Assembly (NCBI GenBank): GCA_052035175.1
Contig: JBPOHV010000001.1
Coordinates: 772,228 to 836,227, forward strand
DNA length: 64,000 nucleotides
Source: a candidate division WWE3 bacterium
GTDB lineage: Bacteria > Patescibacteriota > WWE3 > UBA101185 > UBA10185
Reading direction: 5' to 3'
Positions 7,536 through 62,278 of this stretch are shown here, piece by piece (position 1 is the stretch's first letter; each line of letters begins with the position of its first letter). The notes under the pieces are model-generated. The model had not been told where the DNA came from. It searched no databases and worked only from the letters and a program-made list of their open reading frames with translations. The position numbers and the translations under genes are program-made.

Positions 7536-8054
7536 ATGCCAAATAATAAAAATAAACAAACATTAGAAGAAATAAGAACTAAAGTAAATAATGCTAGATC
7601 AGTAGTTTTTACTGAATATCATGGGTTAAAAGCCTATGAACTCAACGAACTAAGGTCAAAAATCAGACAAGCTGGTAGTGAAATGCTTGTAGCCAAAAAC
7701 ACACTACTCAAAATAGCTTTACGTGAAAAAGGTTACTCAAACGAGATAGATCAATTATCAGGTCCAGTAGCAACCGTACTCGCCTACAACGACCCGATAG
7801 CTCCCATTAAAGTACTTACAGAATTTACCAAAAAATATCAATTGCCAAAATTAAAATTTGGCTTTTTAGAAAACGCATATATAAATGAAGCAAACTTACA
7901 AAATGTAAGCCTAATACCTGAAAAACCAGTTCTTATAAGCAAGTTACTGGGTAGTTTAAAATCACCTTTGACTGGTATTGTATCTGTAATGTCAGGAACT
8001 CAAAGGAAATTTGTATACGCTTTGGCAGAAATTGCCAAACAGAAGGAGGTGTAG
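7536..8054 (+). CDS. rplJ: 50S ribosomal protein L10.
   Basis: 172 aa. [44 protein letters not shown] matches L10. Followed directly by rplL. Confidence 0.9.
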
Positions 8055-13679: not shown

Positions 13680-14357
13680 TTAATGTACATCTATCAATTT
13701 TGCAGTAATTACTAACCTATTTATAACTGTACCTGGAGGATCACACGTTTGTAATGTTAAAGTAGGTTCAATAACTGGTCTCATTATCGGATAAGTATCC
13801 CAACCTTTTACGCGTTCTTTATTCAAAACTTCGTATACATATGTTTTATCCTCATAAAAAAGGTGTATTCTGTCTTTTATTTCAAGCTTGCGTAGTAGAT
13901 TAAATACTGTCGAGTATTGCCCCAATGAGAAAAAATTTAGCGAAGCATGCGCAAACAAATAAGTATTACCTGGTTCTTGAGAAGGATACTCAGAAATAGA
14001 AGCATGAGCGATACCTTGCTTGAGAGCCTCTGTGTATATCTTTTCATTCCAAACAGGTACATCTTTTACAATTGGTGCATTAACCCCAATTTTCTCAATA
14101 ACTATAGAAAAATCTGTGTTTACTGGGTTTATTTTGATTGGTTTAGTTGTAAGCAACTGGGCAAATGGGCTTTCTGCAGCACTACCCGAGTCAACAGAGT
14201 ATTCTTGATTCTTGAGCTGTTTTATATAAAACCACAACTCATCTTTTATCAAAGGTCCCCACGAAACTAACAAAAAAATAATACCTAATACTATTAGTGT
14301 ATTAGGTAAAAGCTTTTTCAAACGAGATAGTGATGGGATTTTGTTAAGTTTATGCAT
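13680..14357 (-). CDS. Sortase-family transpeptidase.
   Basis: N-terminal TM anchor, catalytic His context YLFAHAS, Cys in LTLQTCDP (the TLxTC motif), and Arg in RLVITAKL. Confidence 0.7.
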   Translation of the reverse strand: MHKLNKIPSLSRLKKLLPNTLIVLGIIFLLVSWGPLIKDELWFYIKQLKNQEYSVDSGSAAESPFAQLLTTKPIKINPVNTDFSIVIEKIGVNAPIVKDVPVWNEKIYTEALKQGIAHASISEYPSQEPGNTYLFAHASLNFFSLGQYSTVFNLLRKLEIKDRIHLFYEDKTYVYEVLNKERVKGWDTYPIMRPVIEPTLTLQTCDPPGTVINRLVITAKLIDVH

Positions 14358-27775: not shown

Positions 27776-29161
27776 TTATGATGCCTTGTGTAGATTTGCC
27801 AAGAATTCTTTATTTGTCTTAAACTGTCGTAATCTACCCAATACAAGCTCTGTAGCTTCACGATCATCTAATAAGTCGACCATGCGTCTAAGTTTAAAGA
27901 TTTGTTCCAACACTTCTCTAGAGAACAACTGTTCTTCATGACGTGTGCTGCTACTCTTGATATCTATTGCAGGGTAAATTCTTCTATCTGCCAATACTCT
28001 ATCCAAACGTAACTCCATGTTACCTGTACCCTTAAACTCTTCAAAAATAACATCATCCATTTTGGAACCTGTATCTACAAGTGCTGTAGCTATAATAGTC
28101 AAACTACCTTGTGTTTCAAAGTTTCTTGCAGCACCAAAATAGTGCTTGGCTGGATACAATGCAGAAGGGTCAAAACCTCCGGACAAAGTGCGGCCTGATG
28201 GTTGAACTACCATATTGTAAGCACGCGCAAGTCTTGTAAGAGAGTCCATAAGAATTACTACATCTTTGCCTTGTTCAGCCATACGCTTTGCTCTTTCTAA
28301 ACAAACTTCGGCTACTCTAGTCTGCTCCATAGCTTCTTCGTCAAAATTGCTGGCGTAAACAGTACCTTTTATGCTTCTTTGAATATGCGTGACTTCTTCC
28401 GGACGCTCTCCAATCAAAGCAACTAGTAATTCTGTGTCAGGGTAATTTGTTGTTATTCCATTTGCAATTTCTAGTAAAAGCCATGTCTTTCCTGCTTTTG
28501 GAGGAGCGACAACCATAGCTCTTTGACCTTTACCAATAGGAGAAATGAGATCTATCAGCCTGGTAGATAAAATATCTTGTTTAGTTTCTAAATGCATCCA
28601 TTCGTTTGGAAATACAGGAACTAAGTCGACAAATCTTGGGCGTCTTTTTGCTAATTCTGGATCCATACCTTCGACAGTTTCTACACGCAACAAAGATAAA
28701 TAAACTTCTCCTTCTTTTGGAGGTCTTGCCATACCTTCAATCATGTCGCCTTTTCTTAGACTAAACCGTTTTATTTGAGAAGGGCTAATATATACATCAC
28801 GTGGTAAACCATCTTCTACTTGCTCTGGCTGTCGTATAACACCGTAGTTAGGCAATATTTCCAAAATACCTTTTATAGGTACTACGTCACCTTGATATTT
28901 ATCCATAGGTGCTGATTTATTGTTGTTATAGTTATTATAGTTTCCATTATTATGGTTGTTGGCACTATAGTTGGAATTAGATGAATGATAGTTTGGATTG
29001 CGATATGTATTTGTTGATTGGGTTGGCGTTGGTTTTGGCGTAACAACGGGTGAATCGTCTGTAGTACTTGGTTGTACTACTAAATCTGGTTGAGATGCGT
29101 CTGCTACTACTGGAACATCATCTGTGTTTGATACTGAACTAGCTTTTTTTCTCACTGGCAT
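27776..29161 (-). CDS. rho: Transcription termination factor Rho, with an Asn/Tyr-rich low-complexity N-terminal insertion.
   Basis: The RecA-like core [18 protein letters not shown]...LIGERPEEV...[16 protein letters not shown] is preceded by [30 protein letters not shown]. Confidence 0.9.
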
Positions 29162-34645: not shown

Positions 34646-35752
34646 TTACGGCGTCCAAATATATGGATCAAGAATAGTTCCGTCAGCCAGAACCTTCACG
34701 ATCCATGTATGGACACCACCTTGACCTGCAGCCCAGATATCAATCTGGGCGTCCCCGGCTATTTGCGTTGTTCCGCATGCCCACATTGGGGCAGTCTGCG
34801 GGGCATCTGGGCCAGGAACTTGGGTAAAGTGGAAAACTAAATCCACTTCGGAAACCACGACAAAAGTATCGTTCTGCGGTATGGCTACAGCCATCGTCGC
34901 AGATTCGATAATTGCCGAGTCTCCAGACCCAATAAGGCCTGGCCAACCCTCGGCCCAAAGGCGCGCTTCTGGATCTGGAGAATCCCAGAACCAGATGACG
35001 CCCTCTGGCTGAGGGCCACAATGATTTTCCTCGTACGGCACGGCCGTAGGAGAAGGTGTCATAGTAGGAGTTGGCGTGACCGTCGGGGACGGAGTCCCTG
35101 TGGGTGTCACAGGATCCGTCGGAGTCGACGTCACGGTTGGGCTGGGCGTGGCGGTCGGGCCATTGTACACCTCAACGGTGTACGCCCCATCCGCTGACAC
35201 GCGGATAACCCAATACTCCATCCCCTGATTTTGCCAACCAGAAGTCAGTTCTGCGATTTTGGACTCTGGCATATCGCCCTGAGTCCCACAACCGTAGATG
35301 TTAGCGAAACCCGACCCGCCCAGCGGGACATTGCTAAAGGACAGCGGAAGTTTCGAAATAAACAGCGTTGGAACGCTGATCGAAACTTGTTGCCCAGCAA
35401 TAATCCACAAAGATGGATCTACCGTAACCCAAAGCCCATTTCCTTCAGGCAAAATAACTGCCCAAGGATTCGAGGTGTCACCATCAACGATGGGACCACC
35501 TTGCTCATCCTGCCCGCATGGGCCTTGGATGAAGGGTTCGAGGGTGGCAGTGGGCGTTGCAGTCGGTTCCGGAATGCCTTCTCCATTTGCCACAAAGGGC
35601 AAATAGGAAAGCAGGTTCAACGGAAGAGCCTCCGTAGGGGTCGGGCTAACCCGATCCGCTACATTGTTGGCCAGCGCCTGAAACGGCGCGACCAATAAAG
35701 AAAAAACAAAAAAGGCCGCGATGGCCAACGATAAGAAACGATTAAGTTTCAC
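34646..35752 (-). CDS. Secreted protein with a Pro/Thr-rich linker, encoded in a GC-rich (about 57%) compositional island.
   Basis: GTG start, with AAGGAG 9 nt upstream. Signal peptide MKLNRFLSLAIAAFFVFSLLVAPFQALA. Linker PTATPSPTVTSTPTDPVTPTGTPSPTVTPTPTMTPSPTAVP. Codon usage and GC content are sharply different from the flanking sequence. Confidence 0.65.
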   Translation of the reverse strand: MKLNRFLSLAIAAFFVFSLLVAPFQALANNVADRVSPTPTEALPLNLLSYLPFVANGEGIPEPTATPTATLEPFIQGPCGQDEQGGPIVDGDTSNPWAVILPEGNGLWVTVDPSLWIIAGQQVSISVPTLFISKLPLSFSNVPLGGSGFANIYGCGTQGDMPESKIAELTSGWQNQGMEYWVIRVSADGAYTVEVYNGPTATPSPTVTSTPTDPVTPTGTPSPTVTPTPTMTPSPTAVPYEENHCGPQPEGVIWFWDSPDPEARLWAEGWPGLIGSGDSAIIESATMAVAIPQNDTFVVVSEVDLVFHFTQVPGPDAPQTAPMWACGTTQIAGDAQIDIWAAGQGGVHTWIVKVLADGTILDPYIWTP

Positions 35753-35885
35753 TTCGAAAACTCCTTTACTAATACTACATTTGGGTGCGATTTATGGTAT
35801 GAATTATATCATTACTATAGGTCTTATGTCAACCTACGATATGACAACAAAAGGAAAAAAGGCATATGAGATGTATCTGAAATGC

Positions 35886-37499: not shown

Positions 37500-39638
37500 C
37501 TATCGACTCCCCCCATACTCAATAAATAATTCGTCTTTTAAAGAATATTCATCAGAATAATATGGAATTACTTTTAATTTTTTCATTACTTTTTGCAAAC
37601 CTGTGCCTTCAAAATCTGCTTGTGTATATTTTGTCTGTGTGAGTTTTGTTATATCAGAGCCATTTACTTGAGTATGGATTAAGTTTTGACATCTTCCGTC
37701 TCGGCAAGATTGTCTTTCATCGGTTTGTATAGACATATCCAACAAAGCTGAAGATATTTCTTTTTGAATTTTTAGTTTTGTACCTAATCTGTGACAATAC
37801 GAGAACCCTGTTTTTGGTAAATCATTTATTATTACTTCTTTAGGGTAAACTTCGTAATTGTTAATTTCCAAGATGTGTAGAGTTTCGGGTAAATAAGGTT
37901 GTTTAATGCTTTGATAATTATAATGGCCTGTAAATAGTATAAGTGACGCCAACGGCTCTATTGTAAATTTAAATTCTCCTGTAGAAGTCTTCTCTACTCC
38001 GCAAGTATTGACCTTCACAGGCACATCAAAGTCTTTGCGCTTATAAGTTGTAATATCGTTTGCTTCATTTTCAAATACTTGTAGTTTGTCAAACCACACA
38101 GCGCTTCTATATTTCATAAATTCTGTAGCTTGCATAAGTGCTGCATAATTGCGTAAACCTGTAGGACCAGGATTTTCTGGTGCTAATACATAAGAGACAT
38201 TTTTGTCGCGTAAGAATTTGACTATTTCGTAATCAGATTTAAATGGTTCAAATTGATAATAAGGTACTGGCATATACACTTTGTCTAGCATCATTTGTTC
38301 TCGCAACATTTCTAGACCTGCTGCTGATACTTTTTCATAATCAACAAGTGGTGTAATGCCTACGGCTTGAGTGTCAGAAAAGACTGCATCGGCCATAATG
38401 TTGTTAAATATTTCTTTCATTGGTGGTTTATATGGTCTATATGAGTACAAATCTGGTCTTATCTCAAAATACTCATACATCGGACCTGTAAGTAGAATCC
38501 CCCACGCTGTTGATTCTGTTGAATGTGCTTTTATATGATTGAAACAAGTAAAAACAAATATAAACAATGTAAATGCAACGATAAAAATGCGCAATTTCTT
38601 TTGTTTTATAATATCCAAAACATAAGCAGTGAGAATCGCTAAGGGTAAACTGAGTACAAATAAGTACCTTTGATTTTTATTTTGAATAAGGCTGAATAGA
38701 AAGTAGACTAAAAACAAATGTGCAAATAACAAAAGCGCTGTGCGTCTGTCTTTTTTATAAAAATGAAACCCACCAAACAATGCACATACAAATGGCACTA
38801 AATACATTTGATAAACCAACAACCCTTTGATGTAATGGCCAAAGTTTTCGATAGATAATAGCTTTTTTGGATCATCGGCTTCACCTACTGCATATAACGA
38901 GCTCAAAATGCGCATTTCTTGAAAATTTAATATATACCAAGGCAAAGCTATAACGATAAACATAAGTGATCCGAGCAAAATAGGCTTGATCATATTTTTT
39001 ATTTGACCGTGCTTATAGCCTGTATATAAAACATAAAGTACTGGTACTACAAGAAACAAAAATCCATACCATTTGATCAATTGAGTCAATGCAAATGTAA
39101 TAAAAAATAAAAATGTAAATTTTGAATTAGTAAAATATTTGGATTTAAATAAAAAGTGGTAACACAAAAGCACAAACAAAGTGAGCGGGATTTCTAGATG
39201 AAATACTCTAGATTGATCCCCTACTAAAGGCGATAACGAATAAAAAAATGTACTATAAAACGCTAATTTTTCTGAATACCCTAGATTTATTATTAATTTA
39301 TAAAATAAAACAATCGTTCCCAAAAACATCGAAAATATAAAACCAAGTTGTAATACAAAGTGATAACCAAATATGAGATTAAATACTGCCATTATCAAAT
39401 GGATCAGTGGTGGGTAATAATTGGATTGTGTGGCTATGTCATAAAGAGTTACGCTGCCCCCACCAAAGTATTCTTTGAACATATCTGCGAATCTCATAGA
39501 AAGCGCCATATGGCCTGCGCTATCCCATGTCTGGTACGACTTATCCAAAAGCCTAAATACTACGTATACGAGTGTGTGAAATATAAGAAGTAGATAAAGA
39601 TATTTGTGATATTTGGAACTCGGCAGCAAAACTTTCAT
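37500..39638 (-). CDS. GT-C-fold (ArnT/PMT-like) polytopic membrane glycosyltransferase-like protein with a C-terminal soluble domain.
   Basis: 712 aa. About 11 TM helices in the first 380 aa, then a soluble domain. Confidence 0.4.
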   Translation of the reverse strand: MKVLLPSSKYHKYLYLLLIFHTLVYVVFRLLDKSYQTWDSAGHMALSMRFADMFKEYFGGGSVTLYDIATQSNYYPPLIHLIMAVFNLIFGYHFVLQLGFIFSMFLGTIVLFYKLIINLGYSEKLAFYSTFFYSLSPLVGDQSRVFHLEIPLTLFVLLCYHFLFKSKYFTNSKFTFLFFITFALTQLIKWYGFLFLVVPVLYVLYTGYKHGQIKNMIKPILLGSLMFIVIALPWYILNFQEMRILSSLYAVGEADDPKKLLSIENFGHYIKGLLVYQMYLVPFVCALFGGFHFYKKDRRTALLLFAHLFLVYFLFSLIQNKNQRYLFVLSLPLAILTAYVLDIIKQKKLRIFIVAFTLFIFVFTCFNHIKAHSTESTAWGILLTGPMYEYFEIRPDLYSYRPYKPPMKEIFNNIMADAVFSDTQAVGITPLVDYEKVSAAGLEMLREQMMLDKVYMPVPYYQFEPFKSDYEIVKFLRDKNVSYVLAPENPGPTGLRNYAALMQATEFMKYRSAVWFDKLQVFENEANDITTYKRKDFDVPVKVNTCGVEKTSTGEFKFTIEPLASLILFTGHYNYQSIKQPYLPETLHILEINNYEVYPKEVIINDLPKTGFSYCHRLGTKLKIQKEISSALLDMSIQTDERQSCRDGRCQNLIHTQVNGSDITKLTQTKYTQADFEGTGLQKVMKKLKVIPYYSDEYSLKDELFIEYGGSR

Positions 39639-39795
39639 TTATATGAGTTTATAGGATTTTACAATGCTTAAAAAGGGTCTAGAAATGCAAGGAGGCCCCG
39701 AATGGGAGAAGTAAATAGTGTGGATCAGCTTTATAGGCCGAAACTCTTTTTTAAATCTCTCCATTCGGAGCCTCACAATGCGTAAACTTACGGTT

Positions 39796-40560
39796 TTACT
39801 GTTCGAGAACAGTCGTTTCAACAAGCGAGTAGCCTGGGATGGACGCGGCATCAATCACGAGGAAACCCTCACTTTGACTGCCTTCGTCGAGCACGGCATA
39901 TGACGCATAAACGTCTTTGCCTTCACCAGGACCACCTTTCGGACCTTGCAGGTCCGCCGCCATTAACGCGATTTGTTCGGGGGTACCCCGATAAATGCAC
40001 AAATGCACATCATGGCGGTTGTTTGGATCATTCCAGCTCGTTTGCACAGTCACCTCGAGGGGTACCGTTGAACCATTGTAGAAAGAGAGCACTGCCCCCT
40101 TTCCACTAGACTCAAAGGTTTTACCCGCAAAGGTAACCACGCCGGGCGACATGGAGAGCCAAGCGCCTTCACCAGGATTGAGAACAGCCACCGGGATGGC
40201 GGTTTCAACAGTGAGAAGGGGCATAGCGGCCTCGTCGCAAGCGACGTAAACTGGATCACCAGCCGGGGCTTCCCGAACCATTTCGGTCAGCAATTGCTGA
40301 TTGGCGACCTGACGAGAGGTCCCGGTAGCCGCAATGGCTTCGGGACTGTCGAGGTCGATGGTGTTCCGGCTATTGGAGCCGGTGTTCTCGGTGACCGAGG
40401 TTTCCCAAGGCCAGTTAATCGCGGACATAGATGGCGAAGCCACCTTAAAGACTGCGCTTCCGATTACCACCACACAGGCGGCAATAAAAGCGAGCAGTAC
40501 CGCTCCAAACAGAAACTGGAAGAAGCGGGTCCACGGGTTGACGGATTGAGTTGTGTTCAT
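39796..40560 (-). CDS. Signal-anchored hypothetical protein encoded in a GC-rich (about 56%) island.
   Basis: ATG at 40560, with AGGAG 8 nt upstream. MNTTQSVNPWTRFFQFLFGAVLLAFIAACVVVIG... The track start at 40587 is an upstream TTG. Confidence 0.55.
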   Translation of the reverse strand: MNTTQSVNPWTRFFQFLFGAVLLAFIAACVVVIGSAVFKVASPSMSAINWPWETSVTENTGSNSRNTIDLDSPEAIAATGTSRQVANQQLLTEMVREAPAGDPVYVACDEAAMPLLTVETAIPVAVLNPGEGAWLSMSPGVVTFAGKTFESSGKGAVLSFYNGSTVPLEVTVQTSWNDPNNRHDVHLCIYRGTPEQIALMAADLQGPKGGPGEGKDVYASYAVLDEGSQSEGFLVIDAASIPGYSLVETTVLEQ

Positions 40561-40760
40561 GAGAATTCTCCTTGTTTTTCTTGACAATCTGTGAATGCAG
40601 AATGCCTTATTTAAAGCTCCAAATTTCTTTAGAAACTTAAAAAAGGCATTTGCACACAGTAACCAAAATAAGAAGATTTCTCATTTATTTAACCGTAAGT
40701 ACGCATTTTCAATGTACTTCGCCTTAGCTATAAGCTAAAACGAATATTCCAGCGATTTGA
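40561..40760 (-). promoter_or_regulatory. AT-rich 5' leader of the GC-rich gene at 39796..40560; copy A of a duplicated leader of about 180 bp.
   Basis: About 65-70% identical by eye to 41283..41480, including the same SD context AGGAGAAT(T/A)(C/T)TC-ATG and the blocks ...tccaa..ggaaact.aaaaaaggcatt..., ...tttaaccgt.a.acgc.ttttcaa.gt.cttc.c.ctaagc... Confidence 0.5.
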
Positions 40761-40901
40761 CTCGGCTGGCTTCAAGCCTCAAGAATTCAATCTTAACGCT
40801 TAGAGCCAGCCCGGCAACCAATGGTGTGTAAATTCCTCCCCTTTCGGGGAAGCTAGACACAGCCTCTGGCTGCCGAGGAGACGTGTAACGGTTTGGGCCA
40901 A

Positions 40902-41282
40902 CTAGGCAGTCGCCTTTTTGAAAGGATTGAATGAGGCAAAGGCCTCACGCAAGCCATCCAACATGGCGTCTTTAACGCCAACCTTGAGCTGGGGATTTTC
41001 GGCCGCATCAGCCACGAACAAAGCCCGGACGCTGTCCGGAATGTATTCATAGGCCAACAAGGCTTTTTCGATCCGATCAGACGGATCGTGGGCTAACCCA
41101 CGACGCGAGAGATCGGCATTGCCGAGGCTCGGATCAATCGATCCAACTAAGGCGTCATACGCCTGTTGGATAAACTCTATCCCGACACCTTTCGCGGCAC
41201 GCGCATCTGCGGCAGATACAATAGTGGACAAAAGGGTGGTTTTGAGATCCGGGGCTGTGGGGGCAACTTTAGCAGTAATCAT
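40902..41282 (-). CDS. Hypothetical protein (126 aa) encoded in a GC-rich (about 58%) island.
   Basis: ATG at 41282 with AAGGAGAATATC immediately upstream. No family recognised. Confidence 0.5.
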   Translation of the reverse strand: MITAKVAPTAPDLKTTLLSTIVSAADARAAKGVGIEFIQQAYDALVGSIDPSLGNADLSRRGLAHDPSDRIEKALLAYEYIPDSVRALFVADAAENPQLKVGVKDAMLDGLREAFASFNPFKKATA

Positions 41283-41480
41283 GATATTCTCCTTTTAGAA
41301 AAAAATGTGAGGGCAGGAACTGCCTTTTTTCAATCTCCAATCGCTTGGAAACTCAAAAAAGGCATTCTGCCTTACCATCTTTTCAAGAAGATAATCATTA
41401 TGCTTTAACCGTTATACGCCTTTTCAAAGTGCTTCCCGCTAAGCGGGAAAGCTTAAACAGAATCATCTTCACCCACATAA
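41283..41480 (-). promoter_or_regulatory. AT-rich 5' leader of the GC-rich gene at 40902..41282; copy B of the duplicated leader.
   Basis: See copy A. Contains the hairpin gcttcccgctaagcgggaagc at the position where copy A has ttagctataagctaa. Confidence 0.5.
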
Positions 41481-41736
41481 AATGAGGGATAAAAAGGAAT
41501 AAATCCTTCCAAGCTTTTAATTTGCTTGGGTGATTTCTGAATGAACAAATAGTACTATAGGTATCACTTTTTGTCAAGAGCTATAGGATATATTACGAGA
41601 ATATGGCTTTGCTAAGAGAACAATTACAGGCTGTAGTGAAAGGGTTATATGGGCTTATAACGCATTTCGCCCCTTTGGTAGTATCCAAGATCTGCCTCAC
41701 GACAGGTATAATTTGGACTTTCCAAAGGGGCGATAA

Positions 41737-42021
41737 TCATCTTCCGGTGTACCATTCTTGGTCCCACCAAAAGAAAAGTCCAGGTGCTATGGGCGTTGAC
41801 CAGTAGCTGTTAACTTCTACTCCCCCTTGTTGGGGGTAATAGAAACAAACATAGTTCTTTTGTACAAGAATTGCGGACAAAGATTGTCCGCCAAACTCGT
41901 ACTGGGAAAAAACTGCCCTGTTAATACACTGGTTTCTGGCATAAACTGCCAGAAAGTGTAGTGTAAAACAAAAGAAAAAGGTTATCAATGAAAGCCAGAT
42001 AAACTTTTGCACTTTAGACAT
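41737..42021 (-). CDS. Small membrane-anchored hypothetical protein (94 aa).
   Basis: GGAGG SD upstream of the ATG at 42021. TM segment FIWLSLITFFFCFTLHFLAV. Confidence 0.45.
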   Translation of the reverse strand: MSKVQKFIWLSLITFFFCFTLHFLAVYARNQCINRAVFSQYEFGGQSLSAILVQKNYVCFYYPQQGGVEVNSYWSTPIAPGLFFWWDQEWYTGR

Positions 42022-42087
42022 GGGAACCTCCGGGGAAAAATAAGAATTTTGGTGCGGATATTATATCATGGCTATAGGTCTAATATG

Positions 42088-43474: not shown

Positions 43475-43978
43475 CTAATTCTTACCTATACTTTGTTGCC
43501 TTATTACAGGTATATAATTTAATGCTTGAGTGTGAATCTTCAATTTCTTTTCTGAGTCTTTTATATCTTTAAGACACTCCGCAGATTTTAAAATAGCTTC
43601 ATCAGAGGTAAGTGCATCTTGTCTAAATGTAGCGAGGTCAGCTTTACTCTTTTCTAAAAGTTCTGAGTAATAAGTTTGCAACATAGTAATTATTCTTTCG
43701 GCACCTATAGCTGGCGACGATATACTCATAGTTTCTGTAGGAGAACGAAACTTTTGATTGAACAATGAAGCAAAAGCGTCATAATCAGCAGTCAACTCAT
43801 CGACTCGCCTATCTTGTACTTCTGGAAGATCACCAGATTCTCTAACAAAGTCAACCAAACCCTCCATACACATACGCGCGTCGATAAATGATTGTGAAAA
43901 TGCTTCTTTATCTGGTATTTCTGTATTTCGAGGAATTTCATTATGAGGAAAGTCTAGTGTTGTTAATGTGTTATGCAT
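43475..43978 (-). CDS. Hypothetical protein (167 aa).
   Basis: ORF with tight spacing (17 nt and 37 nt) to its neighbours on the same strand. Confidence 0.45.
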   Translation of the reverse strand: MHNTLTTLDFPHNEIPRNTEIPDKEAFSQSFIDARMCMEGLVDFVRESGDLPEVQDRRVDELTADYDAFASLFNQKFRSPTETMSISSPAIGAERIITMLQTYYSELLEKSKADLATFRQDALTSDEAILKSAECLKDIKDSEKKLKIHTQALNYIPVIRQQSIGKN

Positions 43979-43995
43979 ATATTTATTCTAACAAA

Positions 43996-46059
43996 TCAAA
44001 GTACATCCGCCATTTTTAGTGCTGCATGATATACAACTGGCTTTTGACGGACTTCTTGTGTTACTTTATCGACAACTTTTACATAAGTTACCTCTGGTAA
44101 GTTAGCAGATCGACGCAAAGCGTTTACTTCTACCAAATCCCAACCTTGCTCGTCTGAGGCCAACATATATTGGCTCGCGTGCGCTCTCTCACCAACACCA
44201 AGCCTACGTAGATGCCCAGCTCTTGTAAAAGCTATCAAAGTGTCTTCTTCTTCTTTAGTTTTTTTCCCTCTTCCATAATTAATATTTAGATCTGTGGCTT
44301 CATTGCATGTAATTTCAGCTAAATGTGCTAAAACCATAACTTCAAACCAATTAGTATTATCATTGTATGCACCATATCTAGACATATCTTTACGAGTTTG
44401 TGGATCTAATAGTTTCTTATGTTTATCTAATAAAAGTCGTATTGTGCATTTACCTACGGCTACATCTACAATATATTCAGATTTAGTTTTGCCATTAAAT
44501 TTATAAGTTATTGATGAATAACCCAGACCACGTAAGCTTTGATCCCCTATCTCGCATTGCGTGCCACGAGGACTTATAGATCTACGAAAGTCAATTTTCA
44601 AACGATTTGCAACTTTACCTTTTTTTTCTACTAAATCTGTTGGTAATGATTCGGGTGACAACCAATTTATACATGTCGCGACTTCGGCACTTTTCAACAC
44701 AGGATTATCAGTTTGCCTTTCGAGATTTGCAAGTACAAGGCCTCTAAAATATCCGTGTTGTTCTTCGGGGTGTAACTTTTTATCTGGTACATGTATAACA
44801 GTAGGTTCACCAGGCAAAGTCAAAAAAACATGAGCATTCAAACCTTTTTGCCTAGAAAATCTCCCATAGTCTGCATATATCATTTCCCTAAGAGAGCCAA
44901 TATTTGTAGATATAACATTATATGGAAAAACATTTCTTTCTTCATCTGGAATTTCTGTAAGCGCTGTCGAGTCTTCGTCACCATAAAATAATGCTAAAGC
45001 AGCAAGGCGGCGTTCAAGTACAGCGCGTTGCCTACGATCTGAAATTGTATCTAGAAGGTTACGTGCGTGTATTTCTTTTGATAACATGCCTATCGTTTTA
45101 ATATTTCCAGATGGGTTACTAGAATCATCAAATGCAAGGGTGTCTGGGTGCACGAGACTAAACTTTTCTGAATTTAAGCGCTGTGCAACTAAGGGTTGTA
45201 ATGTCTTAATAATATAATTATAAGCTGGATCAGCGTCTAGCATTTTTGTGACTGCCTTTTTACGCTTGTTTCTCCACTCATTATGGTTATCTGGTGTATA
45301 TAACTTTCCATACCAATCACAAAATAATTCGACTTCGGAATATTTTTTAAAAATCTCATCATTAGCAGATAGAAAACCATTAGCAAAATTTAATCTATAA
45401 GCATTTGCAGAATTACCAATCGTTATATCGCTATTACTACACAATATATTCAATACATATGCAATCTTTGCAGCGTCACCGTCGTCCAAACCCACTTCTG
45501 CTAATAAATAAGATGTCTCTACTACGTGTTTAGTTTGTTCTATCTGATTACCTTTTGGCTCACGCGAAAGTAAACCTTTCAAAATCGCATGGCTATATTT
45601 AGAATGCAATGAGTTTGCTGTAGCAGATGTGATTAAATCTAAAGCTCTTTCTTGTGTAAGAGGTAAGCTTTGCAAACTACTCTTTTCTGCAACACGTAAC
45701 AAAGAATTATGTATAGAACTACGCATGCTATTAATTAATTTTGATGTTTCCGGATTTAATTGGGCAATTTCTTCTAAATTTCTAAAAACCCCAGGCAAAA
45801 GTTGGGAATTATTAATTAATGTTGTAGATACTGAGTTAGTAACTGCCTCCATACGAGCTTTATCACCCAAAGCCGCACTATAATCTGCACATAAATTGGT
45901 CGTCAATAAATATGCCTGTTGATCTAAGCTACTATCGTCGTTAAAAACGGATTCATTTGAGGACATGGGCATACCTGCATAAGCATTACCTTTAGTTCCG
46001 CGGTTTTTACCTTTTAATTTTTCTTCTTCTGGAAAATAAGGGATATCTTCAAAGTGCAT
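43996..46059 (-). CDS. Hypothetical large protein (687 aa).
   Basis: Long ORF. No family recognised. Immediately downstream of the small RHH gene. Confidence 0.5.
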   Translation of the reverse strand: MHFEDIPYFPEEEKLKGKNRGTKGNAYAGMPMSSNESVFNDDSSLDQQAYLLTTNLCADYSAALGDKARMEAVTNSVSTTLINNSQLLPGVFRNLEEIAQLNPETSKLINSMRSSIHNSLLRVAEKSSLQSLPLTQERALDLITSATANSLHSKYSHAILKGLLSREPKGNQIEQTKHVVETSYLLAEVGLDDGDAAKIAYVLNILCSNSDITIGNSANAYRLNFANGFLSANDEIFKKYSEVELFCDWYGKLYTPDNHNEWRNKRKKAVTKMLDADPAYNYIIKTLQPLVAQRLNSEKFSLVHPDTLAFDDSSNPSGNIKTIGMLSKEIHARNLLDTISDRRQRAVLERRLAALALFYGDEDSTALTEIPDEERNVFPYNVISTNIGSLREMIYADYGRFSRQKGLNAHVFLTLPGEPTVIHVPDKKLHPEEQHGYFRGLVLANLERQTDNPVLKSAEVATCINWLSPESLPTDLVEKKGKVANRLKIDFRRSISPRGTQCEIGDQSLRGLGYSSITYKFNGKTKSEYIVDVAVGKCTIRLLLDKHKKLLDPQTRKDMSRYGAYNDNTNWFEVMVLAHLAEITCNEATDLNINYGRGKKTKEEEDTLIAFTRAGHLRRLGVGERAHASQYMLASDEQGWDLVEVNALRRSANLPEVTYVKVVDKVTQEVRQKPVVYHAALKMADVL

Positions 46060-48116: not shown

Positions 48117-48178
48117 ACTTGCAAAACCTCTTTTTTACAGGCTGTAAACTTGCAGAACTTCCTTTTTACAAGTTCTAG
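48100..48178. terminator. Tandem near-repeated hairpin units of about 32 bp between the convergent PIN-TRAM and radA genes.
   Basis: ttgcaagctgtaaacttgcaaaacctcttttttac / aggctgtaaacttgcagaacttcctttttac, each with the stem-loop gcaag-ctgtaaa-cttgc and a T-run. Confidence 0.55.
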
Positions 48179-49506
48179 GGTGATAAGCTTTTTTTGATAG
48201 CATCTGGCAAAGAAGAAACCGTATCAGAAGAAACTACACGTGAAAATCCTAGTTTTTTGGCTTCTTTGATGCGCTTTTCGATATGAGATATTTTGCGTAA
48301 CTCACCTCCCAAACCACATTCACCAAATGCGCATATACCATCTTTTAAAGCAATGTCTTTAATAGAAGAAGCAACCGACAAACACACAGCCAAATCTGCT
48401 GCATACTCTGAAATATTAAACCCACCTACTACGTTTAGATATACATCATAGCTGCTTACAGGAACTCCACAGCGTCTTTCGAGTATAGCTAAGAGTACTT
48501 GTAATCTATTTGCGCTAAAACCGCTGGTACGTCTTACTGGATAACCGTAACTAGTTTTTACAGTGAGCGCTTGTATCTCAAACAAGATAGGACGAAAACC
48601 TTCCATAGTAACTGTAATACATGAGCCAGGTCGATTTTTATAATTTTCCAAAAATACTTGTGACGGATTTTCTACTTGCACCATACCTTCATTTTTCATT
48701 TCAAAAACCCCAACCTCAGAAACTGCGCCAAATCTATTTTTACTGGTTTTGAGAATTCTAAATATATTTTGTGTATCACCTTCCAAAATAAGTACTGTGT
48801 CTACTATGTGCTCCAGAACTTTTGGTCCGGCAACTTCGCCTTCTTTAGTCACATGGCCTACCAATACAAACGGAACATGAATCCGTTTGGCCACTTGAGT
48901 AAACAACTGAGCACAGTTGCGAAGTTGCCCAACAGAACCAGCCATGCCACTAAGACCATCGGCACTAAACATTTGTATAGAATCAATTATTACCAAATTG
49001 ATATCGTCTTTTTCTACATTACTTTCTATCAAATCACATACACTTTGAGCATTTGTTTCTTGCACAACAAACATATTTTCACCCTTATAACCCAGACGCT
49101 CAGCTCTAATTTTTATTTGCTGCGTGCTCTCTTCTGCAGCTACATACAAAACATTTTTTTGAAGCATTTTGGATATTTCTAACAAAATAGTACTTTTACC
49201 TATTCCAGGTTCTCCAGCTATCAAAATAACTTGACCGGGAACAAATCCCCCACCCAGCACTCTATCTACCTCTGGCATGTTTGAAGAAATACGATCTACT
49301 TTTGTTGATTTTGTTTTTGAAAGAGGTGTTAATTCATAATTTAAATTTGGCCTAGATTTGACAGTCATACTACCACTAGCATTTGTGCTAGAAATTAAAT
49401 TTTCTTCAAATGAATTCCATTCCTGGCATTTTGGACATTGACCAAGCCAACTAGAAGTTTCATAAGAACAATTTTTACAAACAAAAACTTTGCGTATCTT
49501 AGACAT
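48175..49506 (-). CDS. radA: DNA repair protein RadA/Sms.
   Basis: N-terminal zinc ribbon CKNCSYETSSWLGQCPKCQEW, RecA-like GEPGIGKSTILL, and the KNRFG motif. Confidence 0.9.
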   Translation of the reverse strand: MSKIRKVFVCKNCSYETSSWLGQCPKCQEWNSFEENLISSTNASGSMTVKSRPNLNYELTPLSKTKSTKVDRISSNMPEVDRVLGGGFVPGQVILIAGEPGIGKSTILLEISKMLQKNVLYVAAEESTQQIKIRAERLGYKGENMFVVQETNAQSVCDLIESNVEKDDINLVIIDSIQMFSADGLSGMAGSVGQLRNCAQLFTQVAKRIHVPFVLVGHVTKEGEVAGPKVLEHIVDTVLILEGDTQNIFRILKTSKNRFGAVSEVGVFEMKNEGMVQVENPSQVFLENYKNRPGSCITVTMEGFRPILFEIQALTVKTSYGYPVRRTSGFSANRLQVLLAILERRCGVPVSSYDVYLNVVGGFNISEYAADLAVCLSVASSIKDIALKDGICAFGECGLGGELRKISHIEKRIKEAKKLGFSRVVSSDTVSSLPDAIKKSLSP

Positions 49507-53577: not shown

Positions 53578-53715
53578 CTGTCCCGGCGACGACCTATCTT
53601 CCCAGGCATTCTGCCAAGTATTTTCAGCGCTGACGGTCTTGACTTCTCTGTTCGGAATGGACCTCGCCGAAGCGAGTTAAGAGGTATAACCCCGCCGCTA
53701 TCATCACCGAGACAG
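53578..53715 (-). rRNA. rrf: 5S rRNA (with an extra hairpin insertion of about 18 nt).
   Basis: The reverse complement contains ...GGTGATGATAGCGGCGGGG...CCGAACAGAGAAGTCAAGACCGTCAGCGCTG... Helix I is ctgtctcgg paired with ccgggacag. The inserted ctcgcttcggcgag is a UUCG-capped stem. Confidence 0.7.
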
Positions 53716-53784
53716 TATTACCAATAAAGTGTGCTCATTTTGAAATAAACACACTAAAAACTGAATAGAAGACTGTAGTTAGAA

Positions 53785-56862
<3,078 letters not shown>

Positions 56863-57008
56863 ACTACCTTGTTTTACCAAGGTCGAACGTTAAATTCTAA
56901 CTTGCTTCTATTCAGTTCTCAATGTGCTTTACTTCGCAAAGCCGATCTCACAAGCTAGCTTCGCTTTCGCTTAGCCGACCTGATGGTCTAGCTTTACTAA
57001 TCTATTTT

Positions 57009-57084
57009 TGGTGGACCCGACGGGATTCGAACCCGTGACCTCTGCGATGCAAACGCAGCGCTCTACCAACTAAGCTACAGGCCC
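57009..57084 (-). tRNA. tRNA-Ala (anticodon TGC), immediately upstream of 23S.
   Basis: Reverse complement GGGCCTGTAGCTTAGTTGGTAGAGCGCTGCGTTTGCATCGCAGAGGTCACGGGTTCGAATCCCGTCGGGTCCACCA. G3:U70 pair. Confidence 0.85.
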
Positions 57085-57499
57085 ACGAAGTGGGTATGTA
57101 AGAGGAAGTGCAATCCCGCTAAGCAGGATAACCAAGCTCTTCCAAGCCCGTGGTACTAGGTATAGATCTTTCGATCACGCACCCAAGTTTATAGATTATA
57201 GAAATGAAGTTGAGATAGTACAAGGTTTTATCCTATGCATATCTCTAAGAGGAATCTAGAGCTTCTAAATAGACTACATGAAATGCAGTTAAGTGAAGAT
57301 TAGCATTCCCATTCCGTATTGGCATAATACAAAATGCCCTCACCCATGTCAACCTTATTTATTGTTAAAAAATAGCGACTTTTCGTCTATGAGGGAATAC
57401 ATAAAAAATCCAAGCAAAGAAATAAAAATAAATAATGCAGAACCCACTATATATATCCAACCTATTACTGTAGTTTTCATATGTAAACTATGACTATTT

Positions 57500-58627
57500 T
57501 CAATCGCCATCCTCGACAATTTCAGCCTCAAGGGGACCAAAAAGATGCGCGTGGTGAGTAGTAAACCAGCTACGAGCAGACTCAACCTTTTCCCCAATTT
57601 GTGCTACGGCATCCATATCTGAACCAGCGTTGTCAATTAAACCTTTTGCATAAACATCCAGTATTTCTTCCAATGTATTTATCGCTTGCATATAGTCTCC
57701 TTTTGCCAACTCATTAATACGGTGTACTATTTGAGCCTCTTTCTTTATAAAAGCGTCGTCTGGGGTTGGTGGCTTCGAAGCTTGTGTCTCTGCTTTAGCA
57801 GCTGGCGCTCTAGCTGGTTGAACTGGCGTCTCTGGAATACCGTTGGAAGCTCTTGAATCATAGACTAAATCACTAAATGCACCTGCCTTGGCAAGTTTCT
57901 CTGCATCTGCATTCATTTTCAAATATCTAAGTAAGTAAGCATAGCCGTCTTTATATAATGCACGAGCCAGTAAAAACTTGGCATCCGCATACTCTTTTAT
58001 TTTTTCAGGAGTATTATGGCTTGCAGCAAGTGCGGACAAATACTCATCCATATGGGCCACAAATTTAACAGGCGAGGGAAATTTTTTAAAAACTTTGGTC
58101 AGATGTCCAGGGCTAATAATCGATTCTTTTAGACCATGTGCTTTCTTCTCGGAATATGCAGTATTGAGCCTTGTTGCAAGAGGTAACGCATCGTCGGCAC
58201 ATGCAGCAAGCAACAATACCTGCGCACGACGATTGATATCCAGCTCAGTACCTTTACCAGAGATGACCTTACGCCACTTAGACTTCTCCGGTGTGTAAGT
58301 TATCTCATCGATAATTGTTTTTGGTTTATATACCTCAGCACACGCATTTGTAATAAAACGCTCCATACCTTTCTTGTACCGACCCTTATGTAGATTGAAG
58401 TAAAAACGCATATTCGCCCGCGGATTTACATTTGGCCTTAGTGTGTCACCAACACCACTTATACCCGCATCCTTAAGTTCATTATCAATATGTTGTATAC
58501 GTTCGGGGTCTAGTAATGCAGTTTGCTCAGCAATAGCACTTTCCAATGCGCTACTATAAGCCGCTTCTACTGTCTTAGGTGTGGTTTCTAAATCGTTCGG
58601 TACCCTATTAATTCCTGCCATATGCAT
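57500..58627 (-). CDS. Hypothetical protein (375 aa) located between tRNA-Ala and tRNA-Ile.
   Basis: Long ORF with protein-like composition. No family recognised. Confidence 0.45.
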   Translation of the reverse strand: MHMAGINRVPNDLETTPKTVEAAYSSALESAIAEQTALLDPERIQHIDNELKDAGISGVGDTLRPNVNPRANMRFYFNLHKGRYKKGMERFITNACAEVYKPKTIIDEITYTPEKSKWRKVISGKGTELDINRRAQVLLLAACADDALPLATRLNTAYSEKKAHGLKESIISPGHLTKVFKKFPSPVKFVAHMDEYLSALAASHNTPEKIKEYADAKFLLARALYKDGYAYLLRYLKMNADAEKLAKAGAFSDLVYDSRASNGIPETPVQPARAPAAKAETQASKPPTPDDAFIKKEAQIVHRINELAKGDYMQAINTLEEILDVYAKGLIDNAGSDMDAVAQIGEKVESARSWFTTHHAHLFGPLEAEIVEDGD

Positions 58628-58705
58628 ATAATTCTAGTTAAAACTTAAGATATAAACAAGCTGTAAAAATAAATTTCTATGTTAAAATTCAAAATGTCTA
58701 CGTTT

Positions 58706-58782
58706 GGGTGATTAGCTCAGGTGGTTAGAGCATTCCTCTGATAAGGGAAAGGTCCGTGGTTCGAGTCCACGATCACCCACCA
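58706..58782 (+). tRNA. tRNA-Ile (anticodon GAT), on the opposite strand to the rRNA genes.
   Basis: GGGTGATTAGCTCAGGTGGTTAGAGCATTCCTCTGATAAGGGAAAGGTCCGTGGTTCGAGTCCACGATCACCCACCA. Anticodon loop CTGATAA. Confidence 0.85.
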
Positions 58783-58783
58783 T

Positions 58784-59227
58784 TTACCAAAGGACCTGGT
58801 CAGACCAGGTCTCGAACTCGGAATTATTATGGTTTTTTATATAAGCAGATACCGACTCAAAATCTCTTTGCGAATTCACTAATCTAGCACGATAGGGACC
58901 TTGGAATAAGTGGCCAACCCTATTATATTTCAAATTGAAAAACATAGTGTATCTTAATCCCACAGAATGCATCGCGCGCGTTATCGACATTGAGTCATTT
59001 TGAAAAATTAAAATGTGGTAATGATTAGGCATTAAAGCCTTTTCATATATCCGCATATTTTCTTTATTTACAGCGCACGATAAGTAATATTCGAATATAT
59101 CCATGTCTGCTTGAGTTGTAAATATAGGTCTTTTTTCTACACCACGATTGTATATATGATAAAAACTGGCAGGCAAATAGACTTTTCTTACATTCTTCTG
59201 AGCCATAACAAGTGAATAATAAAACAA
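58784..59227 (-). CDS. RAYT / IS200-like Y1 HuH transposase, paralogue 3.
   Basis: 147 aa. FYHIYNRGVEKR...PNHYHILIF...GHLFQGPYRARLV. The C-terminal SDQVLW* is encoded by the REP. The stop lies 2 nt from the tRNA-Ile 3' end. Confidence 0.75.
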   Translation of the reverse strand: MFYYSLVMAQKNVRKVYLPASFYHIYNRGVEKRPIFTTQADMDIFEYYLSCAVNKENMRIYEKALMPNHYHILIFQNDSMSITRAMHSVGLRYTMFFNLKYNRVGHLFQGPYRARLVNSQRDFESVSAYIKNHNNSEFETWSDQVLW

Positions 59228-59289
59228 GAGTTGTTAATAACAAGGATATAAATTCCAGAAATACTAGACCTGGTCTGACCAGGTCCCTA
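58789..59289 (-). mobile_element. RAYT/IS200-like unit 3, flanked by inverted copies of a palindromic REP.
   Basis: aaaggacctggtcagaccaggtctc (58789-58813) and agacctggtctgaccaggtcccta (59266-59289). The core gacctggtc-a-gaccaggtc is self-complementary. Confidence 0.75.
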
Positions 59290-59290
59290 A

Positions 59291-60061: not shown

Positions 60062-60099
60062 ACAAAGCCTATTTTAGCACTTAAGAGTGATAAAATTGC

Positions 60100-60591
60100 T
60101 TGAGCTTGTTTATGAAAAATAAATTAGAAAAGTTAAATCGAACTAAATTTGTTGTATTAATGACTTTCTTGGCCTTTTTATTGAAAGTTCTGGCATACTT
60201 TATTGCCAATATAATATTTGGTATTTGGCAAAATCCCACTCTAGAAAAACTTATTCAAGATACAAATGTACAACCTAACATCATGACTTTGATAATCTCT
60301 GGAATCATAATTGCACCAATTATTGAAACGGTTGTTGGACAACTTATACCTATCAAAATAACCAGCCTTTTCACAAAAAAGACTAGCATCAACCTGATTA
60401 TATCTGTAATAGTATTTTCTGGATTACACGACTACAGTAATATCCTCACAGGAATTGGCGTAGGTACAATACTCGCATACTCATATCTATTAAAACTAAA
60501 AATTTCTGAAAAAGAAGCCTTTTTTACAACTACTGCAATACACCTATTACATAATCTTATCGCAGTAATCTTATTAATAATATTTATGTGA
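60100..60591 (+). CDS. CPBP-family (CAAX protease / Abi-like) intramembrane metalloprotease.
   Basis: Polytopic, 163 aa. FSGLHD (FxxxH) and HLLHNL (HxxxN) motifs. The EExxxR motif is degenerate (IIETVVGQ). Confidence 0.5.
   Translation: MSLFMKNKLEKLNRTKFVVLMTFLAFLLKVLAYFIANIIFGIWQNPTLEKLIQDTNVQPNIMTLIISGIIIAPIIETVVGQLIPIKITSLFTKKTSINLIISVIVFSGLHDYSNILTGIGVGTILAYSYLLKLKISEKEAFFTTTAIHLLHNLIAVILLIIFM

Positions 60592-60837: not shown

Positions 60838-62278
<1,441 letters not shown>

Follow-up and report, generated by a model that had tools for sequence, protein, structure and literature searches.

Paralogous mRNA leaders predicted to mask the ribosome-binding sites of two neighbouring GC-rich genes in a candidate division WWE3 bacterium

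The DNA analysed here, called the window below, is a stretch of 64,000 nucleotides of contig JBPOHV010000001.1 from a candidate division WWE3 bacterium (GenBank assembly GCA_052035175.1). On its minus strand lie two GC-rich genes in the order B-A, encoding a 126 aa protein (gene B) and a 254 aa protein (gene A), each preceded by an AT-rich leader. The two leaders are homologous to each other. Each is predicted to fold into a long RNA rod in which the Shine-Dalgarno (SD) sequence is paired with a complementary stretch, the anti-SD, of the same leader, and each starts with a conserved box whose core is complementary to sequence just after the stop codon of the gene that follows. We suggest that the leaders are cis-acting RNA elements that occlude the ribosome-binding site in a very stable rod, and that a helix between the box and the post-stop sequence probably ties the two ends of each cistron together. 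We rate the chances of this reading as slightly better than even.

In brief, the leader is ordered 5' to 3' on the minus strand as a 28-nt box, a CU-rich anti-SD, a central hairpin with flanking helices, and the SD AAGGAGA followed by the AUG. A preliminary description of the window had proposed that the segments 5' of A and B are homologous while the proteins downstream are unrelated. This is borne out, as the segments align and are paralogous. A shared block of 20 nt, GGAAACTYAAAAAAGGCATT, occurs exactly twice in 64 kb, where 0.04 occurrences are expected, and a covariance model of the leader finds both window copies at E ~1e-16 (101 bits for leader A, 103 bits for leader B) and nothing else in 64 kb. 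The SD context of gene A reads AAGGAGAATTCTCATG, as had been described; that of gene B reads AAGGAGAATATCATG, with an SD-AUG spacer one base shorter than in the earlier account.

Judging from their homologues, A and B are real genes. Among 5.8 billion proteins each has one homologue, P0004 for A (52% identity) and P0002 for B (56% identity). The contigs encoding homologues of A and B, L002 (4.8 kb) and L001 (1.3 kb), are both metagenomic and syntenic with the window. The absence of further leader copies would have told against a shared regulatory leader, and three were found on these contigs, in front of orthologous genes. The five copies are thus window A, window B, L002 1766-1915, L002 2493-2631 and L001 552-708. 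Covariance model R1, run on the window and eight loci, retrieved only these five, with none in six related loci of 7-22 kb.

Outside these loci no counterpart of the motif was found in the collections scanned. The box was searched for as the DNA pattern TTGAMAAKGCGTAN{2,3}ACGGTTWA, which gave 0 matches in the GTDB representative genomes, 0 matches in IMG/VR and 2 matches in JGI metagenomes, both of them chance matches in unrelated coding sequence. When the locus was compared with phages and plasmids by BLASTN, nothing matched, and a search of GTDB with the PMT-like glycosyltransferase encoded next to gene A gave no relatives. The comparison with Rfam that had been proposed for the leaders was negative as well. 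A scan with Rfam 15 at gathering thresholds had no match in 39.4-42.2 kb, and a scan with E-values up to 10 returned only microRNA and snoRNA hairpin noise, at 17-22 bits compared with gathering scores of 73-140.

Folded separately, the five leaders each form a single rod of 44-50 bp that pairs the SD with the anti-SD. The minimum free energies (MFE) are -45.6 to -54.0 kcal/mol, with z-scores of -6.7 to -9.6 relative to dinucleotide shuffles. The central hairpin has 19-21 bp and is flanked by further helices. The anti-SD is UCUUCUU in the window, UUCUCCUU (UCUCCUU) in L002 and CUCCU in L001; the difference between UCUCCUU and UCUUCUU is a G.U-compatible one only. All seven SD bases are paired to the anti-SD in four copies and five of them in L001, in independent MFE folds as well as in full-length folds. 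The distance from SD to AUG is 5-6 nt in the four copies of the window and L002, and 9 nt in L001. For A and B the SD:anti-SD pairing persists when the full putative transcript of 1868 nt is folded. The start codon is paired too in the two window copies, and its 5' partner matches each copy's own SD-AUG spacer (Table 1).

An alignment and folding of the leaders had been proposed as a check, and RNAalifold, applied to a plain MAFFT alignment, recovers both the anti-SD:SD helix and the central helix. By these predictions the leaders qualify as SD-occluding leaders, in that the SD is paired with an anti-SD of the same transcript and the pairing is conserved in the homologues. A more distant orthologous leader, in locus L007, is unalignable by sequence, yet its UUCUUCUUU pairs with the SD and closes a long hairpin. 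In the leaders of L005 and L010 SD:anti-SD pairing is not evident. Since the base of the rod takes up the SD, and in the window also the start codon, ribosome binding would be blocked until the rod is unwound or cut.

The structure belongs to the mRNA strand. In all five copies the sense strand folds 9-19 kcal/mol more stably than the antisense strand, and the covariance model scores the sense strand at 70-113 bits and the antisense strand at 17-55 bits. The rods hold 28 G.U pairs and a single A.C apposition (binomial p ~1e-7, for copies that are not fully independent). A randomly decaying DNA palindrome should show the two in equal numbers, and the large excess of G.U pairs therefore argues for selection on the mRNA strand. 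In the model-based alignment A5, both sides have changed in 17 of the 37 pairs and 81.5% of the cells are paired, counts that are approximate because A5 mis-registers the SD helix for window A and L001. None of 500 shuffles reached the observed covariation values, and in slid controls 41-62% of the cells were paired. The central hairpins of the second L002 copy and of L001 differ largely in sequence and have the same shape. We regard the covariation evidence as supportive rather than conclusive.

A structured cis-regulatory RNA, one of the possibilities raised in the preliminary description, is the best reading of these data, on the mRNA strand. The structure that supports it is the long rod and not the small palindromes on which it had been based, whose case as a conserved structure is weak. 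Both of them lie upstream of the box and outside the rod. The palindrome ttagctataagctaa of copy A is present as described and forms the core of a 12-bp stem. This hairpin is kept in L001 (1248-1274), and L002 has a different hairpin at the equivalent place. In copy B the palindrome is present as GCTTCCCGC-TAA-GCGGGAAAGC, one A of which had been dropped. It is part of a lineage-specific insertion of 27 nt that is missing from L001, where the upstream region is otherwise 92-96% identical and the surrounding 270 nt are 84-96% identical, and for this reason the B hairpin is not a conserved feature of the leader; a near-identical hairpin is present in the B-A spacer of L001. The argument that the structure is conserved while the stem sequence differs is thereby unsafe for the small hairpins and valid for the rod.

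The strand asymmetry also bears on a small RNA from the opposite strand, suggested earlier on account of a plus-strand hairpin followed by T6, GGCAGGAACTGCCTTTTTT. Such an RNA would be antisense to the leaders and end at GGCAGGAACUGCCUUUUUU. The hairpin does exist at 41314-41332, as a perfect 5-bp stem followed by T6, and weak promoter-like sites are present on the plus strand. However, it arises simply as the complement of the 3' side of rod B, neither copy A nor L002 or L001 conserves it, no conserved plus-strand promoter was found, and the antisense strand is the one with the weaker folds and the lower model scores. We consider an antisense RNA the least probable of the explanations weighed here.

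Could the rods be functionless palindromic repeats, selfish or neutral, of the MITE (miniature inverted-repeat transposable element), ERIC or BOX kind, that landed in front of two genes? What would suit this is the presence, in two copies, of a long imperfect palindrome of ~120 bp, along with a 27-nt hairpin module that has been moved or duplicated. Against it, just two copies occur in 64 kb, both positioned alike with respect to SD and AUG, and no dispersed copies were found in the public collections scanned (GTDB, JGI, IMG/VR, phages and plasmids). The copies are kept at orthologous positions in the relatives with compensatory changes, and a ratio of 28:1 for G.U over A.C is unexpected for a decaying DNA palindrome. 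A functionless repeat appears very improbable.

The second component of the leader is the box, GYACNTTGAMAAKGCGTA(N2-3)ACGGTTWA, whose core is invariant in all five copies. The cores of box A (AATGCGTACTTACGGTT) and box B (AAGGCGTATAACGGTT) are complementary to sequence just after the stop codons of gene A and gene B, respectively. When the box core (17-18 nt) was slid along the 670-1190 nt downstream, the best duplex was found within ~20 nt past the stop codon in all five units, at -17.5 to -22.4 kcal/mol compared with -10.9 to -14.7 kcal/mol for the next best, and 0-14 of 500 shuffles were at least as good. For box A the post-stop complement is the best partner in the whole 1190 nt downstream (-22.4 kcal/mol, next best -10.9), and 17 of its 19 positions pair with the box in the MFE structure of the operon. 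The corresponding values for box B are -18.6 compared with -14.7 kcal/mol in 666 nt, with 14 of 16 positions paired, and the same pair emerged independently as inverted repeat I17. Boxes and complements covary by type, AAUGCG with CGCAUU in A-type units and AAGGCG with CGCCUU in B-type units. The MFE structure of the 1868-nt stretch from promoter P1 (see below) to the stem after gene A contains both closing helices together with both SD:anti-SD helices, and the L002 units behave alike. On the putative transcript the predicted pairing thus qualifies as a 5'/3' long-range interaction, with leader and 3' untranslated region complementary over at least ~14 bp and the complementarity conserved in the homologues.

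Inverted repeats of 14-19 bp that bracket all five units at fixed positions could also be DNA elements. The box core and its inverted post-stop copy would then be recombination sites that invert the gene or that once delimited a gene cassette, acting either as an on/off switch that splits the -35 element from the rest of the unit or as marks of the cassette boundaries. The preliminary description had similarly considered a cassette site that captured two foreign genes. The pattern of conservation over 39400-42030 lends this some weight. Compared with L001 and L002 it is a mosaic of near-identical non-coding islands and strongly diverged adjacent open reading frames (ORFs), with breakpoints that coincide with the box and the SD. 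In the comparison with L001, identity is 84-100% over the non-coding parts, namely P1, the element that precedes it, the stretch from P1 to the box, and the B-A spacer. It is ~45% in rod B and 55-65% (nucleotide) in gene B, and the upstream gene can barely be aligned; conservation breaks exactly at the box and resumes ~50 nt past the stop codon, with rod and gene far more diverged than the flanks. Between window and L002, rod B is 85% identical and the downstream genes ~40%, so that for gene B the relationship is the reverse of that for rod B. The products, moreover, resemble surface proteins.

The rod and the gene thus differ in their closest relatives. This speaks for recombination or gene conversion among the leaders, and the leader modules appear to have been exchanged independently of the genes. 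For the DNA-element explanation itself the balance is poor. All three loci have a single orientation, the repeats carry bulges and internal loops, no recombinase is found among the 25 ORFs scanned, no integron features are present, and the rods show an asymmetry between strands of the RNA type. Both genes are orthologous and syntenic in the relatives rather than swapped, and no extra copies of the supposed site were found. Capture of foreign genes at a cassette site is therefore unsupported, and a role of the repeats at the DNA level is, in our view, quite improbable.

Whether the box can pair as RNA depends on its being transcribed. The sole consensus promoter at the B-A locus, P1, lies ~260 nt upstream of B and is conserved: L002 shares 38 of 40 bases with it and L001 46 of 50. 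A stem with the tail CUUGCAUUUCUAG follows gene A, in L002 likewise (3350-3440), and has no equivalent after gene B. The boxes contain a -35 sequence, TTGACA or TTGAAA, in all five copies without a conserved -10, and the real promoters of the locus and the genome have near-consensus -10 hexamers. Since the boxes lack a conserved -10, P1 is strong and conserved, and the terminator-like stem is found only after A, we favour a B-A operon that is probably transcribed from P1 through both boxes, with leader A as an intercistronic leader.

Alternatively, each box could be a separate promoter. The rod would then stabilise the 5' end of a monocistronic mRNA, in the manner of the leaders of highly expressed genes for surface proteins, and the post-stop complement would be a DNA-level feature (for example a second operator) or a relic. 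The invariable -35 sequence points this way, as do the spacings TTGACA-17-TATAAC in L001 and TTGAAA-16-AAAAAT in the second L002 copy. In the window copies the predicted +1 would fall at the base of the rod, exactly where a protective 5'-terminal stem belongs, and the hairpin just upstream of the box in most units could act as insulation. On the other hand, the -10 is unconserved (AATAAA, AGCATA, AAGATT) in a genome whose real promoters are near consensus, and the conserved "spacer" coincides exactly with the stretch that complements the post-stop sequence. Besides, a pure stabiliser needs no SD:anti-SD pairing, yet the pairing is kept in all copies. We find separate box promoters unlikely, though they deserve to be taken seriously.

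In the RNA-based mechanism that we prefer, the rod buries the SD, and in the window copies also the AUG, and we infer that translation would be silent until the rod is opened, either through cleavage by RNase III or an RNase Y-like enzyme or by a helicase. As a long and nearly perfect duplex, the rod makes RNase III the obvious candidate for the cut. The rod would also shield the message from nucleases. If the box is transcribed, as it would be from the strong P1 as part of the B-A operon, the box core and the 15-19 nt past the stop codon could form a helix of 14-17 bp that joins the 5' and 3' ends of each cistron. The outcome would be a compact, nuclease-resistant and translationally silent message. 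A more far-reaching proposal is that each cistron of the two-gene mRNA is locked individually, by its own box:post-stop helix plus the rod over its ribosome-binding site. This we put forward only tentatively, at clearly less than even chances. If true, the "inert, closed mRNA" of tiny toxin genes, or an rRNA-like excision by RNase III, would be found on surface-protein genes of ordinary size.

Several points weigh against occlusion by the rod combined with end pairing. If the box itself is a promoter its core would not be transcribed, and the anti-SD of L002 and L001 could lie at or before +1. The box/post-stop pairs hold only one G.U and one A.C, so that selection at the RNA level and selection at the DNA level are not distinguished by them, and in the distant loci L005 and L007, taken with the whole leader, the 5'-3' complementarity is indistinguishable from that of shuffles. 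MFE predictions are in general unreliable for long-range helices. The covariation statistics are weak because the five copies come from three lineages and two of the five are paralogues of the same genome, and A5 is an alignment that had been fitted to the model. At -45 to -54 kcal/mol the rods would stop translation almost fully, so a factor that opens them must be assumed. Finally, four of the five rods have a U-run behind them, which would fit a terminator or attenuator too.

In that last case the rod would be an intrinsic terminator or attenuator between promoter and coding region, which stops most transcripts unless its formation is prevented. The runs consist of 5-7 U on the 3' side (window B AUUUUUUUC, first L002 copy AUUUUUG, second L002 copy UAUUUUUA, L001 GCGUUUUUCC), and a terminator scan flags the sub-hairpins AAGGCAGAAUGCCUU+UUUU and GGCACUCUGCUAAGGGUGCU+AUUUUU. 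Window copy A, however, has no such run, and where present the U-runs are base-paired inside the rod instead of trailing it. We found no conserved alternative pairing that could serve as an antiterminator, and the stems that do close genes at this locus have no U-run after them. What all five copies have in common is the pairing of the SD. Termination at the rod is improbable in our judgement.

Table 1. Features of the B-A locus (positions in the window; pairings and folds are predicted)
Feature	Position	Strand	Remarks
Gene A	39796..40560	minus	254 aa; GC-rich (GC content at third codon positions, GC3, 0.58); N-terminal membrane anchor; small lineage-specific family
Leader A rod	40558..40685	minus	~50 bp; MFE -45.6 kcal/mol; z = -7.9; 6 G.U pairs
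Leader A SD pairing	40670-40676 : 40567-40573	minus	anti-SD UCUUCUU : SD AAGGAGA
Leader A start pairing	40678-40684	minus	AUGAGAA : UUCUCAU; includes start codon 40558-40560
Leader A central hairpin arms	40601-40623 + 40628-40650	minus	inverted repeat I3
Box A	40689..40717	minus	GTACATTGAAAATGCGTACTTACGGTTAA; -35-like TTGAAA at 40707-40712; no conserved -10
Hairpin upstream of box A	40718..40744	minus	12 bp; UUCGUUUUAGCU-UAU-AGCUAAGGCGAA; contains ttagctataagctaa
Post-stop complement of box A	39777..39795	minus	mRNA sense AACCGTAAGTTTACGCATT; directly after TAA stop
Terminator-like long stem	39679..39774	minus	arms 39761-39774 + 39692-39705; inverted repeat I12; tail CUUGCAUUUCUAG; downstream of A
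Gene B	40902..41282	minus	126 aa; GC-rich (GC3 0.56); Ala-rich, probably helical; no Pfam/PHROG family
Leader B rod	41280..41399	minus	~45 bp; MFE -50.6 kcal/mol; z = -6.7; 5 G.U pairs
Leader B SD pairing	41385-41391 : 41288-41294	minus	anti-SD UCUUCUU : SD AAGGAGA
Leader B start pairing		minus	AUGAU : AUCAU; reaches into start codon
Leader B central hairpin arms	41321-41340 + 41345-41364	minus	inverted repeat I6
Box B	41405..41432	minus	GCACTTTGAAAAGGCGTATAACGGTTAA; -35-like TTGAAA at 41422-41427
Hairpin upstream of box B	41431..41452	minus	part of 27-nt insertion missing in L001
Post-stop complement of box B	40879..40894	minus	mRNA sense AAACCGTTACACGTCT; starts 7 nt past TAG stop
GC-rich multi-stem spacer	40764..40875	minus	~110 nt; between post-stop complement of B and leader A
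Promoter P1	41549..41577	minus	TTGACA-17-TACTAT; flanked by CCTATAG motifs; best promoter match in region, 10/12

Some further elements of the locus are listed here for completeness. The GC-rich spacer between B and leader A has a consensus fold with a GNRA hairpin and a 21-bp hairpin (inverted repeat I5), equivalents in L001 (1100-1235) and L002 (2355-2470), and 92-100% identity to L001 over ~140 nt. It has no Rfam match and could represent a small RNA of its own, a site of processing or a terminator complex. After a gene for a 94-aa protein and just upstream of P1 lies a 68-nt three-stem rod with a GUGA tetraloop (41667-41733, minus strand; inverted repeat I23). Its counterparts are found at 282-345 in L001 and 1545-1612 in L002, the latter identical to the window in 37 of 40 bases. 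This rod is far more conserved than the flanking genes, and more so than an ordinary terminator needs. Two short upstream ORFs, of 15 codons (40640-40684) and 8 codons (41373-41399), both on the minus strand, start at the AUG that pairs with the start-codon regions of A and B. L002 does not conserve them, and, as they are probably incidental, we dropped them as a feature of the leader. A diversity-generating retroelement was also considered, and no template/variable repeat pair was found.

A palindromic motif, CCTATAG (or CTATGG/CCATAG), is found in or beside the promoters of GC-rich and lineage-specific genes, at 35815-35821, 41555-41561, 41581-41587 and 42072-42078 on the minus strand of the window. 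Motifs of this type also occur at promoters in L002, L005, L007, L009 and L010. Examples are GACCTATAG(N2)ATGATATAAT in front of two genes, and the two copies around P1. The window contains 14 copies compared with 6.9 expected. The motif may mark a shared regulator or sigma factor.

The use of an SD is the exception in the window, where most ORFs have none. Instead they have a TAnAAT hexamer 6-8 nt before the ATG, for example 13680..14357, 43475..43978, 43996..46059, 48175..49506 and 57500..58627 (all minus strand), which suggests that the mRNAs of most genes in the window are leaderless. The sequence AGGAG is found in the window only before A, B, a third GC-rich gene at 34646..35752 and 27776..29161. 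The 3' end of the 16S rRNA reads CACCUCCUUUCU. The third GC-rich gene has a short, unrelated leader behind the promoter TTGACA-17-TATAAT, and no 5'-3' complementarity was found for it. A literature search found no work joining Patescibacteria, leaderless and Shine-Dalgarno; works joining the latter two with the candidate phyla radiation do exist.

Genes A and B have a GC content of 54-55%, compared with ~35% for the genome, and the adjacent gene for a PMT-like glycosyltransferase has a GC3 of 0.28. Neither protein matches Pfam or PHROGs. The family of protein A has 21 representatives among 1.84 billion proteins. The structure model of protein B is helical and of low confidence (pLDDT 51), and B shares with P0002 and the product of L002 gene 1 a common N-terminus, SDRI..LAY and FW.GLTG. 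Three PMT-like glycosyltransferases and sortases are encoded next to A and B, and the housekeeping genes in the surroundings encode S1, a Clp ATPase, RadA, DprA and NDK.

The related loci L005-L010 were found through the PMT-like protein, at 41-49% identity. All four distinct loci among them have one or two GC-rich genes at the equivalent place, with a GC3 of 0.55-0.79 compared with 0.22-0.38 for their neighbours. These genes have a strong SD and, behind a consensus promoter, a leader of 270-440 nt rich in hairpins. Gene A is homologous to the L007 gene, which encodes 191 aa and is likewise placed beside a PMT-like gene; homology to A was established for this gene, the one that the comparison covered among those at the same place in L005, L007, L009 and L010. 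Conserved positions are occupied by GC-rich genes in the window (34646-35752, 39796-40560 and 40902-41282, all minus strand), L002 (1913-3327), L005 (8953-9867), L007 (9308-9883), L009 (2642-3852 and 8094-9077) and L010 (1822-3207 and 5437-6282). Across these loci their GC3 is 0.53-0.79, and that of neighbouring genes 0.22-0.38; orthology was shown for those of L002 and L007. The GC3 stays high even in relatives with a PMT-like protein that is only 41-68% identical. Several of the genes encode membrane-anchored proteins with Pro/Thr-rich linkers, beside PMT-like glycosyltransferases and sortases. The leader of the first GC-rich gene in L010 contains a near-perfect hairpin of ~33 bp (1648-1722), 80 nt upstream of the SD.

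The window itself is part of an AT-rich bacterial chromosome and carries genes for 5S, 16S and 23S rRNA and five tRNAs; a protein database places it on a contig of 925 kb. In the region 53581-62279 the 16S (60837-62279) and 23S (53793-56856) rRNA genes, both on the minus strand, are ~4 kb apart with protein-coding ORFs between them, so there is no compact rRNA operon, and a tRNA-Ile gene lies on the strand opposite to the rRNA genes. The 23S match is 3064 nt long compared with 2925 nt for the model, and an insertion may be present. A ribosomal protein L10 leader (RF00557, 64 bits), an ordinary feature, is found at 7418-7543 on the plus strand upstream of 7536..8054.

As a general kind, occlusion of the ribosome-binding site is well known, and what is unusual here is the complementarity that brackets the cistron. 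RNA thermometers such as ROSE and fourU elements are short, marginally stable hairpins that occlude the SD. The leaders resemble them in that a pyrimidine-rich stretch pairs with the SD, G.U pairs included, but with rods of 44-50 bp and -45 to -54 kcal/mol they are far too stable to melt at physiological temperature. Leaders or stems processed by RNase III are found in the lambda N leader, T7 early mRNAs, E. coli adhE and the processing stems of 16S and 23S rRNA. As in RNase III-processed leaders, a long, near-perfect duplex of at least 20 bp lies in the 5' untranslated region beside the ribosome-binding site, and as in rRNA operons, complementary sequences bracket a whole gene inside a polycistronic transcript. 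Unlike in those systems, the duplex here is a predicted one, and the part of the genome scanned showed no rnc gene. To our knowledge bracketing stems around protein-coding cistrons are not described as a standard feature.

With integron cassettes and their attC sites the locus shares imperfect inverted repeats at gene boundaries and genes of a composition foreign to the genome. Unlike them, it shows neither an R''/L''/L'/R' organisation nor an RYYYAAC inverse core, and no integrase is encoded among the 25 ORFs scanned. Its repeats flank the gene on both sides and do not form a compact hairpin 3' of it, and the genes have their own SD and leader and syntenic orthologues. An integron cassette was rejected on inspection, as GTTAAAT fits the core GTTRRRY in one copy only and there is no inverse core.

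The closest functional parallels are mRNAs with paired ends. The hbs mRNA of B. subtilis has a structured 5' untranslated region, a strong SD and a 14-bp interaction between its 5' and 3' untranslated regions that modulates RNase Y (Braun, Durand and Condon 2017, PMC5737220). Like hbs, the leaders described here combine a structure, a strong SD (AAGGAGA) and a pairing of 14-17 bp between box core and post-stop sequence. In hbs, however, the SD is accessible and the mRNA is protected by the initiating ribosome, in contrast to the SD buried in the rod here; there are two consecutive cistrons here, each with its own 5'-3' pair, there is no sequence similarity, and the interactions are known from predicted folds. 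In the aapA3 and hok toxin mRNAs, anti-SD hairpins and a long-distance 5'-3' interaction keep the full-length transcript inert; the aapA3 ORF is 90 nt long (PMC6733600). As in hok/Sok and aapA/IsoA the SD would be sequestered by an anti-SD, which lies upstream in the leader here and at the 3' end in type I toxin mRNAs. Those systems consist of small toxic peptides with a cis-antisense RNA, unlike the products of 126 and 254 aa found here, for which no antisense RNA is supported. A type I toxin-antitoxin mRNA was rejected as a candidate on the size of the two ORFs, and no conserved antisense promoter or terminator was found. The likeness to hbs, hok and aapA appears to lie in the mode of working, and the locus is not a member of those families.

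If our reading is true, a poorly known lineage, with a 925-kb contig at ~35% GC and missing from the GTDB representatives and the JGI collection scanned, would use two modes of translation. Most genes would be leaderless, and a few GC-rich genes for surface proteins would use strong SDs masked by RNA structure. The leader would be a new RNA motif and a candidate for the RNA family databases once its sequences are more numerous, and it would offer a testable case of post-transcriptional control in organisms with almost nothing known about regulation. The pairing of mRNA ends, seen in the single cases of hbs, hok and aapA, would then extend to a modular design that is repeated cistron by cistron.

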